A stretch of 64,000 bases of DNA from the NCBI RefSeq assembly GCF_016026235.1, contig NZ_CP065613.1; one strand, written 5' to 3'. This document shows positions 10,999 through 16,900 of the stretch, piece after piece. Position numbers: made by a program. Position 1 is the stretch's first letter; every line of letters begins with the position of its first letter. This DNA is from Escherichia coli (GTDB lineage Bacteria; Pseudomonadota; Gammaproteobacteria; Enterobacterales; Enterobacteriaceae).

Positions 10999-13900
10999 TG
11001 AGTTCACAGATAAAACACTCTCCAGGAAACCCGGGGCGGTTCACTCGCACCTCCGCAGTCCTCAAACAAGTCTGGCTGGTAGCTGTAAACAGACTTCGTA
11101 CATACCGCTCTGCAATAAATCCCCGTAGCACAGGCCTCACAGAACTTCTTCCCATGAAAAAACTGCTCACACATCACACAATGCCACTCCAGCACGACCG
11201 GTAATGGTGATAAAAACATCGCCATATCCTCAATGTAAGGGTGGGACTTTTCCGGATTCAGCACCACACAGTCCGCCTTCTGTTGCTCGCTCAGGGCATG
11301 TAAATCGTGCTCAAACCATGCCCCCTGAGCATCTGTCTGCAGAATTAACCGGCCATGACAGGAAAGGCAGAAACAATGCCGGATATTTCTGCTGAGCGCA
11401 GAGTCGGCACTGATAATGTGCTCACCCGGCGTGATCCCCAGCCCCGTTTTTATACCGTTCATTCTGCTACCCCCTCCTCACTGAAGCGCCCGGTCTGGCA
11501 GTGTGTGCAGTACCGCTCCCCATAATAATCGTGGTGACATTGTCTGCAGTGCCAGCTGGCTTTACGCACCACGGGTAAGGCATCCGGGACGAATTGCTGC
11601 AGACGTTTAATCAACCGTATTTCTCTGCGTTCCGGCCTGACATAAGGACATTGCTGCGCGTGCTCCGTCAGCCCGTCGTCAGTGTGTTCAAACCAGAGCC
11701 GTTCGGTGTCGTATTGCGGGTGGTATCTGAGTGCACTGCCGCAAAGGTGGCAGGTGTAGTGGGCATAAGGAGCAGTCTGTGCGGTACGGGCACCGATCAG
11801 ACGTCCGTTGCCATCAAGTGCGAGAAAAGATTTTGCGTACATAGTATATGTTCCTCTGCGCCAGACGACACGCAGGCAACAGCCGTCCCGGTACTGGCAG
11901 CGTGGTCAGGTGTGAATGGCGGTTTTCAGTTCAGTCTCAGAAGGGAAAATCAGTGTGGTCGCTGTGAACACATCATCACACTAAGGTCAGATAAGTCGTC
12001 TGTCGGGCTCAGCCACGACTGCAGCCAAAGTTGCGCTCACCGGTGCCGTAAGCTTTGGTACTCTCCTTCGCCAGATAGTCAGCACGCTCCAGCACCTGCT
12101 GAAAGCCGGTGTCATCATCGCGTTCCAGCCACACCGCCGGCCTGACCGGAAAATGCGCCAGCGTGGTATGATCTCCGGTATCCACTCCCAGGGCACTGCA
12201 CCACGCCTGTTTAATCATCCCGGCCAGTGATCCCGGAGCGCGGTAATCGCCGGCACGACACCAGGTATCCCGGTTGACCAGCAGCATCAGGTGATAGTGT
12301 TTTTTACCTTTGCACTCCCCAAACTCCCGGGCCCAGACGTAATGCAGGGTTGTGGGATGCACGCGTTTACCTTCCCGATGCTTACGTTTCTGGTAAGCGT
12401 CGATTCGGGCTTTCAGGGCATTGATGAAGCGGGATATCACAGCTGCGTCCGTTGCTGCCGGTACATCCGGGAGACGCAGGTCAACCCGCAATGCCGTCAG
12501 GCGGGGATGAACATTCAGTGCGTGCCGCACCGTCTCACGAATACGTTGCTGCCAGAAGGGGTTGTATTTGTAGGTCATGGTTAAATCTCCGTATGGTTCA
12601 TACGGAATAGCCACGTCGTAAAAAATACGCAGAGTCCCTGAAGTGACCTCCGGCAGGACACTGTCTCAGGCACTCTGTGATAACCCGAACGGTCGTCTCC
12701 GGACTGACGATTGAATTCCCGGCGTTGTTTTTTTTAATGTAAAAAACCGGTTACGGATAAGGCGTGGAGAGGGAGCGATCGTGATACGCAAAAAGAAGTG
12801 CAGGGACTGTGGTAACGCAATTACTCATAATACAGTATGTTGCCCGTATTGTGGCGCTGTCGACCCCTTCGGTTATTATCGGAAGACCGATCGTCTGCTC
12901 TGTTTACTGGTAAGCTTCCGGGGAACTCATATTGACGCGTTTTTCAGGCGCGCGTCATCGGCGGCGCATACGAACGCTCGTGGTTTGATAACGGTTGATT
13001 TATTTTGTTGCACAGAGGCGATCGCCAGGCAGGTACCGGAGGCGGGCTCTGAAGTACTGAGTAGCGTGATCGCGTCAGGCCGCGAAGTACTGACTCGGGG
13101 ATTAATTGCAGGTGATGATGTACTGACCCGGGAATGACTCCGGGCTGATTCAGGTTCTTATTCGCTGTCAGCCCGCGTGGTTGCTGGTCTGGCTCATTTC
13201 CTGCCGTCAGGAGTTCAACTCCCGACTGCAGGTTATGGCCCGGTGCACGAACACCTGACGGCAGGTATCACTCACCCGGAGAAGGTAAATCCCTCAAGAG
13301 GCAGCAACTCTGCCAGTCGCTCCTCCGGCCACTCCGGCAGACGCATCAGGACGTCTGTCAACCAGGCATGCGGCTCCAGACCGTTGCGTTTCGCGGTTTC
13401 CAGCAAGCTCATTATTTGCGCGGCGCGTTCTCCCGCCATCTGCGAACCGGCGAACAGCCACGATTTTCTGCCCAGAACCACGTTTTTGATGGCCCGTTCA
13501 CACACATTATTATCCAGCGGCACCGCACCATCTTCCAGGAAGCGGCTCAGTTCCACGCGATGAGACAGCGCATAGGCAATGGCTTTGTGTAATGCCTTTC
13601 CCGGAGAACATTGCGGTTCCTGCTCTTCAAGCCATGACCACAGTTCTTCCAGTATCGGACGGGCATAACGCTGTCGCCACTGGCGGATTTTTTCCACGGG
13701 GCGGCTACTGATCTTCTTCTCAAGACGGTACAACCCGCGATTTTCTTCACAGCTATGGCAGCCCGTGGATCTTTACTGATTTTATACAGGTCGGCGAAGC
13801 CCCTGCGGGCATGGGCCCAGCATCCGGCCAGCGTGATCTCCGGCACTTTGTTTGCCAGAGTCCGGTAAGCTTTATGTCCGTCAACAACCAGCGTCCCGCC

Positions 13901-16900
13901 CAGCCCTGAAGCCAGTTTTCAGGATACTCATGGCTACGTCCGGTCCGGCAGTCGAAGCACACAACTGACGGTCCCGTCCTTTCTCCACTGACGTATGCCC
14001 ACAGATAACCGGAGCAGGATTTACCGCCTTTCTTCGTGTTCAGGATCTTCAGGGTAGTCTCATCTGCATGCACCACCGGACGGTTTATCAACTCGCGATG
14101 GAGTAACGCCGCCAGGGGAGATAATGCGGCACCCGCCGCGCCAACCATGTCAGCCATCGAACTGACGGGCAGCCCGACATCTGAACGGGCAAAGACCTGT
14201 TGCTGGCGATACAGAGGCAGGTGGTCACCGTATTTATTGATGCTCACCTGTGCGATGACTGATGGCTCAACGGCACTTTTCGGGAGGATATGTGCCGGCA
14301 TTTTACCGCTGAACACCTTCTGGCAACAGGGACAACTGTATTGCGGACGGACATAACGGTTCACCACAAAGTGAGCGGGAATATACTCCAGCTTTTCACT
14401 CACCGCATCGCGGATATAGTGCAGCGGCTCGTCACATTCAGGGCAATGGTCAGTGTCCGGCTGGATAATTTTTTCCACCCGTGGAAGATGAACCGGTAAG
14501 GGTTTGCGTATCGGGCGTGAACGGGACGCTTTTTCATCTTCTTCAGGGGATTGCGGGAGCAGTTTATCCAGATGTGCGGTAAGCGCGGCGATATCGGCAT
14601 CAACATCCTCTTCGAACAGGGAGCGTTGCATACCAGCCAGCGTTTCACATTTTTTTCCGAAGCGCTGTTGACGAACCAGTTTCAGCATTTCTTCCAGAAG
14701 CTGGATGCGCCGGCTTTTCTCCAGTAATTCCCGCTCTTTTTCGGCATTCTCCGACATGACTTCTTGTACCATGGCAAGTGCCATAGCACGCAGTTTTTCG
14801 ATGTCATTCGTGGTGTTGAGAGCGGAGATATCCATACAGGGGAGTATACCACTCCAGATACGGATATTCATTATTTTTCACTGAGTTAGCAGTGTATTTT
14901 GCGTGTTTTCAGGGCGCAGTTCAGGTTCATTCTGCCAGACCCATTTCGTCAGGTCATGTCCCTTAACCTGCTGCCAGTCAACACCGGCAATCAGCCAGTT
15001 AAACTCGTCGGGAGTGAGGTGCCAGGCAGCGTCATTTGCACGTGGCCAGCGGAAGCTGCCTTTGTGCAGACGGCGGGTACACAACCACACCCCGTGTTTA
15101 TCCCACCGGAGAACTTTGATACGCGAACGGGCTTTGTTAACAAAGACGAAGGCGGCTCCCTCATGCCATGTCGACCGGAGTTCATCCTGTATATACTGCG
15201 TCAGTGAGTCGATGCCCCGGCGCATGTCAACAGGTTTAATTGCGATGAAGACATTATCAGGACTGAGCATATTTGAGTGCCCTGAAGACATCGGTAAGTT
15301 GTGACGGCTGACAGCACATCCGTACTCCACCGGGAAGGAAGAGCGTGACTGGCTCATTCGTGACGGGCTGTGGTACATCAGCATGCAGTGGTGGCGCAAT
15401 ATGAACGGGAAGAACGGTCGGTTCATTTGCCCGGCGTTCAGCTTTTGCGACATCCTGCGGCCATTCGCGAAGTGATGTGAAGGGAATATCGTTGAGTTCA
15501 CAGTATTGCTGACGTGTAAGACCACTGGCGCGCCAGGCAGCAACGTGCTGCCTTTTCTGTTCAATGGTCCATCGGGGTTTTGACATCGATTATCTCCGGT
15601 AAGTTGGTGAATGGATGTCGGTAATACTAACTGACCGAAGATCCCTGTGAAGATGACTTCCCCGTAACGACACGTTTACTGACGTTACTGCTGGTGCTGA
15701 TTCTGGTTACCGTTTCAGGCGTCAGTGTATTTGTACTGTTGCAGTAGGTTACAGGGGAGGGATTATCAGGAATCGGCGGGGCAGAGCGACCCGCTGCGTT
15801 TGTTGTGCCAGACAGTAACGCACCGGCTCCCTGCAAAATGGTACCTGAATCAATCACAGTCAGGTATTCCGCCAATCCGTGATCGAATCGAGCGGAATAC
15901 TCAGCCCCGACAAATACGAGTCCCCTTCAGAAGATACAGGCCGGTAATGCCTGAACGCCTGCCCCTCTGTACACCATTCCCTTTTGATTTCGAATTCTTT
16001 GTTGCCGTTATGTTCCCGATCTTCCGGTGCACAGATAACACCGGAGTCATCGTAGCGCGGATTCAAGATTCAGGTGACATATTTCCAGACGGAAGCCGGC
16101 ACGCGATCGTAAAGTTTGTTCATTGTCAGTTCTGCCAGCCGGTGATCGACCGCAGAGTTAAAAGCTTCCAGCTCCGCAGGGGTAAGTTTATAACGTGTGT
16201 GGGAAATCACTTTTTCCAGCGTCTCCCGGGATGAACAACGACGGAACTGCTCTGGTTTTAACTTCCATTCGTCTCTCGTTACTTTATGCTGTAATCAACG
16301 TGATACTGCCAGCATACCGCACCAGACTGACATTCTGGTACCCTCCCCAAACTCATTACTCCCGTGCCACCACTTAACCGGTCTCTCAGCAATATCGCCT
16401 TAACGCTACGTTTAGTTATCCGACACCGGATGTCCGATGCCATTGCGACAACCTGAAGGTAACCAGCCAGTTAGCTGAGATGTTAAGCTGCTGGCTGCAT
16501 ACACCTTGCCAAATCTAATCGCTGTTATCTTAACCAATTTCCAGGATACAAGGGGGCGATTACTGAGAATACTCTCAGACTGTCACTCACCAGATCGGAT
16601 ACGTTTACCGCTCAGGCGGATGCTTAATGCACTCTGTTCAGGTGCATTGCAGGTACGTTTTATGTACGCAGGTTATACGCCAGTTATCAGGGATAACCCT
16701 GTGAGTACAACGCAATCTGTTGCTACTGGGTAGACTGGTCTGCTGATCACACTCACAGATTTATTTCACATATATGAACTCATGTGTTTGAGCTCTCTTA
16801 TATATTTATAATACCAATCAGACAGTCTTATCCCACCAGTGATACCTGTCGCCTGCCCACAGGTCACAGGCTGATGCACCACAACCGCCTTCAAAAACAA

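Follow-up and report, generated by a model that had tools for sequence, protein, structure and literature searches.

A mobile IS66-family element of ISEc49/ISSfl3 type in an Escherichia coli aerobactin island, with tnpC frameshifts that are most likely assembly artefacts

A 64,000-nucleotide stretch of an Escherichia coli assembly (hereafter the window) contains an IS66-family insertion sequence whose transposase gene, tnpC, is broken into three open reading frames, and a first-pass annotation took this damage as the mark of an old, decaying copy. Does a multiply frameshifted transposase gene in one assembly tell us anything about the age of the element that carries it? We find that the locus is one complete copy of an insertion sequence of ISEc49/ISSfl3 type that is already known from E. 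coli and Shigella and is mobile at present. Our preferred reading, to which we give a probability of roughly 0.7, is that this is a known mobile IS66 copy sitting in a small zinc-ribbon gene and that its tnpC lesions are artefacts of the assembly.

The element and its insertion site

The insertion sequence extends over positions 12910–15673 on the minus strand (2764 bp, versus 2766 bp in intact copies); the interval 13272–14871 initially assigned to it covers tnpC, but the whole element is larger. Comparison with E. coli DA33135, where the site is empty, set its ends, and the same termini with an 8-bp duplication recur at seven further insertion sites and in E. coli CFT073. The left terminal inverted repeat, GTGTCGTTACGGGGAAGTCATCTTCAC (15647–15673, minus strand), was read from the sequence, and the right one, GTAAGCTTCCGGGGAACTCATATTGAC in inward reading (12910–12936, plus strand), is the same terminus as in CFT073. 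Both are 27 bp long and imperfect, matching at 19 of 27 positions, with a core recovered by an inverted-repeat search; the first bases are GTAAGC in the right repeat and GTGTCG in the left. Outside them lies a perfect 8-bp target-site duplication, CAGTAAAC (left copy 15674–15681, right copy 12902–12909, both minus strand), which is single-copy in the empty site (locus L002, 4030–4037). This empty site is present in DA33135, SCU-172 and a further locus, L032. The gene interrupted by the element encodes a 65-aa zinc-ribbon/transmembrane protein, with its 5′ part at 12781–12909 and its 3′ part at 15682–15750, both on the plus strand; joined, the two parts give the protein annotated as intact in DA33135 (WP_032144956.1). 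The surrounding genomic island carries aerobactin genes, and a tRNA scan for the island boundary found none in the 64-kb window.

Two of the three genes are intact, as had been annotated. tnpA (15257–15586, minus strand, 109 aa) matches the NCBIfam model for IS66 TnpA (NF047593, 50.8 bits against a cut-off of 28), its product having no Pfam match, and tnpB, or IS66 Orf2 (14878–15270, minus strand, 130 aa), matches Pfam PF05717 (3e-35) and NF033819 (115 bits, cut-off 50). They lie on the same strand with a 14-nt overlap, tnpB being immediately upstream of tnpC; aligned with the CFT073 copy, they show zero base differences, and exact matches to the TnpA and to the TnpB protein are encoded on at least 1000 contigs apiece. 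Beyond tnpC, the right end of the element is non-coding (12937–13271, minus strand) and contains a hairpin at 13200–13265 with 17-nt arms (fold z-score −2.2) and three copies of the repeat TCAGTAC(A/T)TC. The features of IS66-family membership are all found here: the TnpC domains, tnpB, tnpA, an 8-bp target duplication and inverted repeats of ∼20–30 bp. The label ISEc49/ISSfl3 is taken from PGAP and UniRef names on proteins 99–100% identical to the repaired TnpC rather than from an ISfinder reference, and against these names the earlier designation "ISEc8-like" is imprecise. Both ISSfl3 and ISEc49 are scarcely mentioned in the literature searched.

Nine other loci, representing seven other insertion sites, carry a near-identical IS with a perfect 8-bp duplication and an uninterrupted 533-aa tnpC; their settings are chromosomes, F-type tra regions of plasmids and one metagenome scaffold. 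Besides two G's lacking from the window's tnpC, eight of these loci have no mismatch to the window IS and one has a single mismatch. Since such copies occupy seven other sites, each with its own duplication and a continuous reading frame, the element has been recently mobile; the same copies are indirect evidence that the window copy may itself be able to transpose. Two assemblies of the window's lineage contain, in addition to the chromosomal IS copy, an identical intact copy on a large plasmid.

Two single-base deletions in tnpC

In an ORF listing of the sequence as written, tnpC is split on the minus strand into three open reading frames in three frames. Fragment 1 (13753–14871, 372 aa) stays in frame as far as a GGG run at 13899–13901 and then continues as an out-of-frame tail; it contains LZ_Tnp_IS66, zf-IS66 and positions 2–130 of the DDE_Tnp_IS66 profile, and the real start of the gene is likely the ATG at 14835 rather than 14871, giving the 521-aa product annotated in CFT073. 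Fragment 2 (13547–13846, minus strand, 99 aa) covers profile positions 145–181; in its frame, the middle one, lies the genuine coding sequence from one G run to the other, with the CWAHARR motif. Fragment 3 (13272–13733, minus strand, 153 aa) supplies the C-terminal third of the DDE domain (profile positions 182–283) and the IS66 C-terminal element, DDE_Tnp_IS66_C. PF13007, PF13005, PF03050 and PF13817 are in this way spread over three fragments and are collinear on one IS66 transposase. Alignment with the intact CFT073 copy (99.5% identity), a comparison of the kind proposed in the first-pass annotation, places both indels: there are exactly two 1-bp deletions, each GGGG to GGG, at 13899–13901 and 13734–13736 on the minus strand, 165 nt apart, and every other copy has GGGG at these sites. 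The description of tnpC as three ORFs produced by two frameshifts is accurate for the sequence as given. The repaired TnpC (521 aa) scores 440 bits on NF033517 (cut-off 180).

The deletions are absent from all relatives. Six independent same-lineage assemblies are collinear with the window, with 0–2 substitutions over 17–21 kb, and all have GGGG at both sites; at each site, 8/8 lineage loci that cover it carry the extra G. For one locus (L031), the two G's are the only differences from the window over 17,118 bp, and another (L021) differs over 14,093 bp only at the two G's and an A run in IS600. The variant tract is shared by none of the 181 complete E. coli genomes (of 5,426) that carry the stretch. 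The exact fragment proteins, with two start choices for fragment 1, are absent from a collection of 15 billion proteins, and the allele thus has no independent replicate there. The top homology match to fragment 1, P0095, covers the out-of-frame tail, but it is a different frameshift variant. Gene conversion from a diverged defective copy had been suggested by the presence of two substitutions along with the two deletions at 13734–13901; both substitutions are common to the whole lineage, however, and the private differences there are thus the deletions only.

One could envision an old relic, long decaying in place within an ancient IS graveyard, and the three frames of tnpC would fit it, as would the neighbours: an IS4/Tn5-like remnant split by IS600 (the truncated 259-aa IS4-like ORF is not on record by exact look-up) and an IS629 that has lost 4 bp and lies next to a deletion of ∼4 kb. 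However, both inverted repeats are intact and the duplication is perfect; the copies at six of the other sites differ from this one by no substitution and the copy at the seventh by one, tnpC is unbroken in sister assemblies that carry this insertion, and the repaired TnpC is 99.2–99.4% identical to intact proteins. We consider great age extremely unlikely, and the description of the copy as "old, decaying" is not supported. The first-pass annotation would have counted itself refuted if resequencing showed tnpC to be continuous, and in the closest substitutes, the six near-identical assemblies of this locus, it is. Its further view that the element is "probably immobile" would apply to autonomous movement only, given intact ends and the identical intact plasmid copy in two lineage assemblies. 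As for the damaged neighbours, the loss of 4 bp from IS629 is genuine and common to assemblies of the lineage, but the IS600 lesion, a contraction from A7 to A6 in a slippery run at 8142–8147, is private to the window within that lineage.

Both tnpC lesions fall in G runs, and the IS3-family elements nearby rely on programmed −1 frameshifting, IS629 giving a hit to the ALIL pseudoknot; the frameshifts might thus be thought functional, serving programmed recoding or a slippage-based switch that turns transposase expression on and off. All other copies read through tnpC without a break, though, which makes recoding unnecessary; two deletions would need two +1 events, known cases of phase variation involve runs longer than 3–4 G, and an Rfam search found no element in tnpC, its only hit being the IS629 pseudoknot. 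Programmed frameshifting was accordingly rejected, and we give functional frameshifts of any kind next to no credence.

Artefact or mutation

Four differences are private to the window over its 64,000 positions: one substitution and three 1-bp homopolymer contractions, the third being that in IS600. All three contractions lie within ∼5.3 kb of IS DNA, inside multi-copy IS transposase genes, a placement with a chance of ∼6e-4 if random. The other 58.7 kb, which is non-IS, has no private indel and one private substitution, no 1-bp indel in the 24.9-kb core is unpaired, and 10/10 non-IS proteins tested (two aerobactin-operon products and eight core proteins) exactly match known proteins; on these grounds we reject a high error rate throughout the assembly.

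The picture that best accommodates these data is as follows. The IS, encoding TnpA, TnpB and the DDE transposase TnpC, inserted by ordinary DDE transposition into the small zinc-ribbon gene of the aerobactin island, duplicating CAGTAAAC. As written, the sequence can yield no full-length TnpC, one G being absent from each GGGG run and the DDE domain scattered over three frames. The two tnpC contractions and that in IS600 are most likely homopolymer under-calls surviving in multi-copy repeats, and the organism itself probably carries an unbroken tnpC. Short-read polishing has been described as failing in this way, leaving homopolymer errors behind in repeats (PMC8812927). Both the artefactual nature of the lesions and its cause are inferred from a comparison of assemblies, and several points count against them. 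G runs of 3–4 are short for typical long-read homopolymer errors. The IS600 A6 allele exists elsewhere, as a 95-aa OrfA on 122 contigs, including Shigella boydii Sb227, and the IS629 deletion at the same locus is genuine. In four short-read assemblies of related strains the sequence continues through the IS without a break, a sign that those four strains have a single copy; were it single-copy in the source strain too, the repeat-polishing explanation would be weaker.

Alternatively, the two G contractions could be genuine strain-private mutations, in which case the chromosomal copy would have turned into a non-autonomous pseudo-IS very recently, once the strain had diverged from its closest sequenced relatives, and an intact copy could still move it in trans. 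The contractions are, after all, present in the sequence as given, and the non-IS part of the window looks clean. Frameshifted IS copies also occur elsewhere: the 4-bp deletion in IS629, in the same cluster, is common to the lineage assemblies L013 and L021, so genuine IS decay does happen at this locus; P0095 is another frameshifted tnpC variant in public assemblies; and the NCTC assembly carries its own extra A in tnpC. Set against this are two independent frameshifts in one 1.6-kb gene and a third in IS600 beside a single private substitution in 64 kb, a ratio of indels to substitutions and a placement that would be unexpected under neutral mutation; moreover, all three changes are homopolymer contractions, and none of the three is seen in any other assembly. 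We regard genuine mutation as unlikely, at something under one chance in four. If the contractions were real, they would be very recent and the copy non-autonomous, but its two intact ends would still allow it to be mobilised. A bolder proposal, that real contractions reflect not neutral decay but a mutational process, or selection, that targets transposase genes and rapidly silences active IS copies, seems to us very improbable; were it true, one strain would have acquired three frameshifts in the transposases of two unrelated IS families while the other 58.7 kb changed by one base.

We thus consider the lesions most likely to be uncorrected homopolymer errors in repeat copies or, failing that, very recent. 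The biological weight of the locus is small, as the element is of a well-known type and an aerobactin/IS600/IS629 island is typical of Shigella and related E. coli. For annotation, the lesson is one of caution: finding a "multiply frameshifted transposase" in one assembly is no evidence of age. If intact, this copy would be able to generate insertions and rearrangements within a virulence island, the opposite of what had been concluded at first.

Comparison with known IS66-family elements

The closest known systems are ISEc49 and ISSfl3, which share the tnpA-tnpB-tnpC order with the window element and whose TnpC is exemplified by WP_000354986.1 in E. coli CFT073. The CFT073 copy resembles that of the window at 99.5% nucleotide identity over 2.7 kb, with the same termini and an 8-bp duplication; its TnpC differs from the repaired window protein at four amino acids, and the two single-G losses are found only in the window. 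A further difference is that a second IS66-family element sits within the CFT073 copy, close to its right end; no insertion breaks up the window copy.

IS679 and IS66, the founding members of the family, have three consecutive genes with the DDE transposase last, an 8-bp duplication, a length of ∼2.5–2.8 kb and inverted repeats starting GTAA/GTG, and in the 2001 work of Han et al. all three genes were reportedly needed for IS679 transposition. The window element is like them in gene order, duplication, length and repeat starts, but belongs to a different sequence lineage and has an unusually long non-coding stretch (∼360 nt) from the tnpC stop to the right end; its left inverted repeat starts GTGTCG, not GTAAGC. 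ISDge4, of the ISBst12 group of the IS66 family, is flanked by direct repeats of 8 bp, and its imperfect terminal repeats begin GTGAC/GTAAC (PMC12898284). The 8-bp duplication and imperfect terminal repeats are shared with the window element; however, ISDge4 has a single transposase gene without tnpA or tnpB, in contrast to the three genes found here.

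Structure and insertion of the IS66-type element

The minus strand at 13272-15586 contains five ORFs, and the first-pass annotation, which had described an IS66-family element with intact tnpA and tnpB and with tnpC in three ORFs, is correct as a description of the sequence by ORF listing, Pfam and NCBIfam. The tnpA gene (15257-15586, minus strand) encodes 109 aa identified as IS66 TnpA by NCBIfam, and tnpB (IS66 Orf2), which runs on the same strand from an ATG at 15270 to 14878 and forms the C-terminal 130 aa of its ORF, matches NCBIfam IS66 TnpB. The three tnpC fragments, also on the minus strand, are collinear on one IS66 transposase according to Pfam: the first (13753-14871) carries a leucine zipper, a zinc finger and DDE_Tnp_IS66 profile positions 2-130, the second (13547-13846) positions 145-181, and the third (13272-13733) positions 182-283 plus the IS66 C-terminal element; the DDE domain, by its Pfam limits, is spanned by no single polypeptide in the window copy.

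In alignment, the copy in E. coli CFT073 is 99.5% identical to the window region and has an intact tnpC; the alignment contains exactly two gaps, at 13899-13901 and 13734-13736, each a GGGG that has lost one G, and the left end, tnpA and tnpB show zero differences. The deletions, 165 nt apart, do not cancel out, so tnpC is read in three frames: the first shift comes directly ahead of VVDGHKAY, the middle frame holds the CWAHARR motif, and the last frame holds the NNxCER stretch. With both missing bases put back, tnpC encodes a 521-aa IS66 transposase (440 bits against an NCBIfam cut-off of 180); counted from an upstream ATG, the TnpC allele of the window's lineage is 533 aa long.

The same flanks occur in E. 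coli DA33135 with no IS between them: window positions 17500-15674 meet 12909-11276 with an 8-bp overlap (CAGTAAAC). The limits of the IS are therefore 12910-15673, a length of 2764 bp between perfect 8-bp target duplications; the empty site was also found in SCU-172 and in one further locus (L032). The terminal inverted repeats are 27 bp long and imperfect (GTGTCGTTACGGGGAAGTCATCTTCAC and GTAAGCTTCCGGGGAACTCATATTGAC, 19/27 positions matching). The target is a plus-strand gene for a 65-aa zinc-ribbon/transmembrane protein, and joining 12781-12909 to 15682-15750 gives back the protein annotated in DA33135. The CFT073 copy (6718-9397 of locus L001) has identical termini and is flanked by GCATTAAC; it is interrupted close to the right end by a second IS66-family element, which duplicated 8 bp on insertion (TATGCGCC) and has a tnpC annotated as frameshifted.

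The stretch of about 360 nt after tnpC (12910-13271) is non-coding and unusually long; a hairpin with arms of 17 nt (13200-13216 / 13249-13265) stands immediately past the tnpC stop codon, and three TCAGTAC(A/T)TC repeats are also present. The stretch has a fold z-score of -2.2 and gave no match in an Rfam search. The right junction of the insertion is common to loci L007 and L011-L019 from other assemblies (L007-L010 are labelled Shigella dysenteriae, going by protein names). To the left, the loci sharing this junction either pass into different sequence (a phage tape-measure gene, phn genes, rnr) or end at window 15343, cut off by other IS copies; this indicates IS-mediated rearrangements.

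Origin of the tnpC frameshifts

Six independent assemblies (GCA_031665325.1, GCA_900449985.1, GCA_001907565.1, GCA_021506395.1, GCA_012772235.1 and GCA_008180225.1) run collinear with the window for 17-21 kb around the IS and differ from it by 0-2 substitutions each; all six have GGGG at both tnpC sites. The two G's are the sole differences between the window and one locus of its own lineage (L031; 17,118 bp), and for a second such locus (L021; 14,093 bp) the only other difference is a single A within the adjacent IS600, in its A7 slippery run. A comparison with lineage loci covering all 64,000 window positions gave four differences private to the window: a substitution at 30627 and one-base deletions at 13901, 13736 and 8147. 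Each deletion shortens a homopolymer inside an IS transposase gene; these genes make up ~5.3 kb of the 64 kb, and under random placement the chance of all three falling there is ~6e-4. Of 5,426 complete E. coli genomes, 181 carry the stretch, and the variant tract occurs in none of them; the tnpC fragment proteins are absent from a collection of 15 billion proteins. The remainder of the window is clean: comparison of a 24.9-kb core with a 97% relative gave no unpaired 1-bp indel, and 10/10 non-IS proteins tested match known proteins exactly. Two lineage assemblies carry the IS on both chromosome and plasmid, and homopolymer-length errors left in repeats after short-read polishing are a described weakness of hybrid assemblies (PMC8812927). 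Both tnpC frameshifts are therefore most likely assembly errors (probability about 0.7, judged from sequence comparison).

Alternatively, the frameshifts could be genuine, very recent lesions private to this strain. A run of 3-4 G is short for a homopolymer error, and four short-read assemblies of related strains traverse the IS, which may thus be single-copy in some strains; for the IS600 A-run, A6 is a real allele elsewhere. Genuine lesions in tnpC appear unlikely, and it is very improbable that all three private contractions are real, which would mean that some process targets transposase genes. The NCTC assembly GCA_900449985.1 (L027) has an extra A of its own in one tnpC A-run, at the equivalent of window 14741, and its called product is shortened to 492 aa; within the IS, this is a further homopolymer difference confined to one assembly.

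Neighbouring insertion sequences and other loci

The 7-16 kb stretch had been taken for an old, decaying IS cluster, and this holds only in part: the IS cluster is real and some of its damage genuine, as in IS629, but the IS66-type element does not belong to an old decay series, and no other lineage assembly has the IS600 lesion. In IS629 (9738-11042), a 4-bp (GTGC) deletion at 10316 splits orfB; it is real because two lineage loci (L013 and L021) share it. It leaves a 118-aa fragment that Shigella virulence plasmids also carry, annotated there as 'TnpD'; the defective allele is thus multi-copy in its own right. IS629 keeps an intact ALIL frameshift pseudoknot (10073-10189; 120 bits). In IS600 (7827-9089), the programmed-frameshift slippery run (8142-8147) is A6 in place of A7, leaving an OrfA of 95 aa and orfB beyond reach of a -1 slip; the 95-aa OrfA occurs on 122 contigs, several Shigella boydii Sb227 loci included. 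Insertion of IS600 has split an IS4/Tn5-like DNA-binding remnant (7096-7875 and 9043-9288), and beside IS629 (9376-9737) ~4 kb of E. coli SCU-172 DNA is missing, comprising the remainder of an acyltransferase gene, YagK/YfjJ genes and an ISEc22.

The interval from IS629 to the IS66-type element (11004-11842 and 12009-12614) holds, as conserved island cargo, a pair of neighbouring DUF7828/zinc-ribbon genes together with a YagK/YfjJ (inovirus Gp2-like) gene. At window 3779-4093, iucB of the aerobactin operon is split by an 11-bp deletion (at about 3812), leaving an N-terminal fragment of 104 aa and an ORF of 217 aa, so the siderophore pathway is probably broken in the sub-lineage with this allele, which is on 14 contigs including an NCTC assembly and absent from GCA_031665325.1. 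In sslE (window 46710), GCA_031665325.1 has a 16-bp insertion relative to the window and other lineage assemblies.

Age, mobility and relation to known elements

The TnpC allele of the window's lineage is encoded at many places. We aligned the window IS to ten loci with this allele, two at the window's site and eight at seven further target sites (on chromosomes, in F-type tra regions of large plasmids and on one metagenome scaffold). At all ten the IS is 2766 bp long with a perfect 8-bp duplication, and, the two G's aside, nine show no mismatch to the window copy and one a single mismatch. An element base-identical at many sites has moved recently, and the window copy, being the same element minus two bases, is incompatible with long decay in place; the age first ascribed to it is not supported.

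IS66-family elements move when the DDE transposase TnpC acts on the terminal inverted repeats, leaving an 8-bp duplication; Han et al. are said to have found in 2001 that IS679 needs tnpA and tnpB as well. As written, the window copy cannot supply TnpC. Because its ends are intact, it could be mobilised in trans by the TnpC of an identical copy, to judge from the sequences.

Every defining feature of the IS66 family that was tested is present. The CFT073 relative is annotated "IS66-like element ISEc49 family transposase", and the match to the names ISEc49 / ISSfl3 rests on the annotation of 99-100% identical proteins. An 8-bp repeat has also been reported for ISDge4, with termini GTGAC/GTAAC (PMC12898284), and the IS66-type element described here shows no departure from the known kind.
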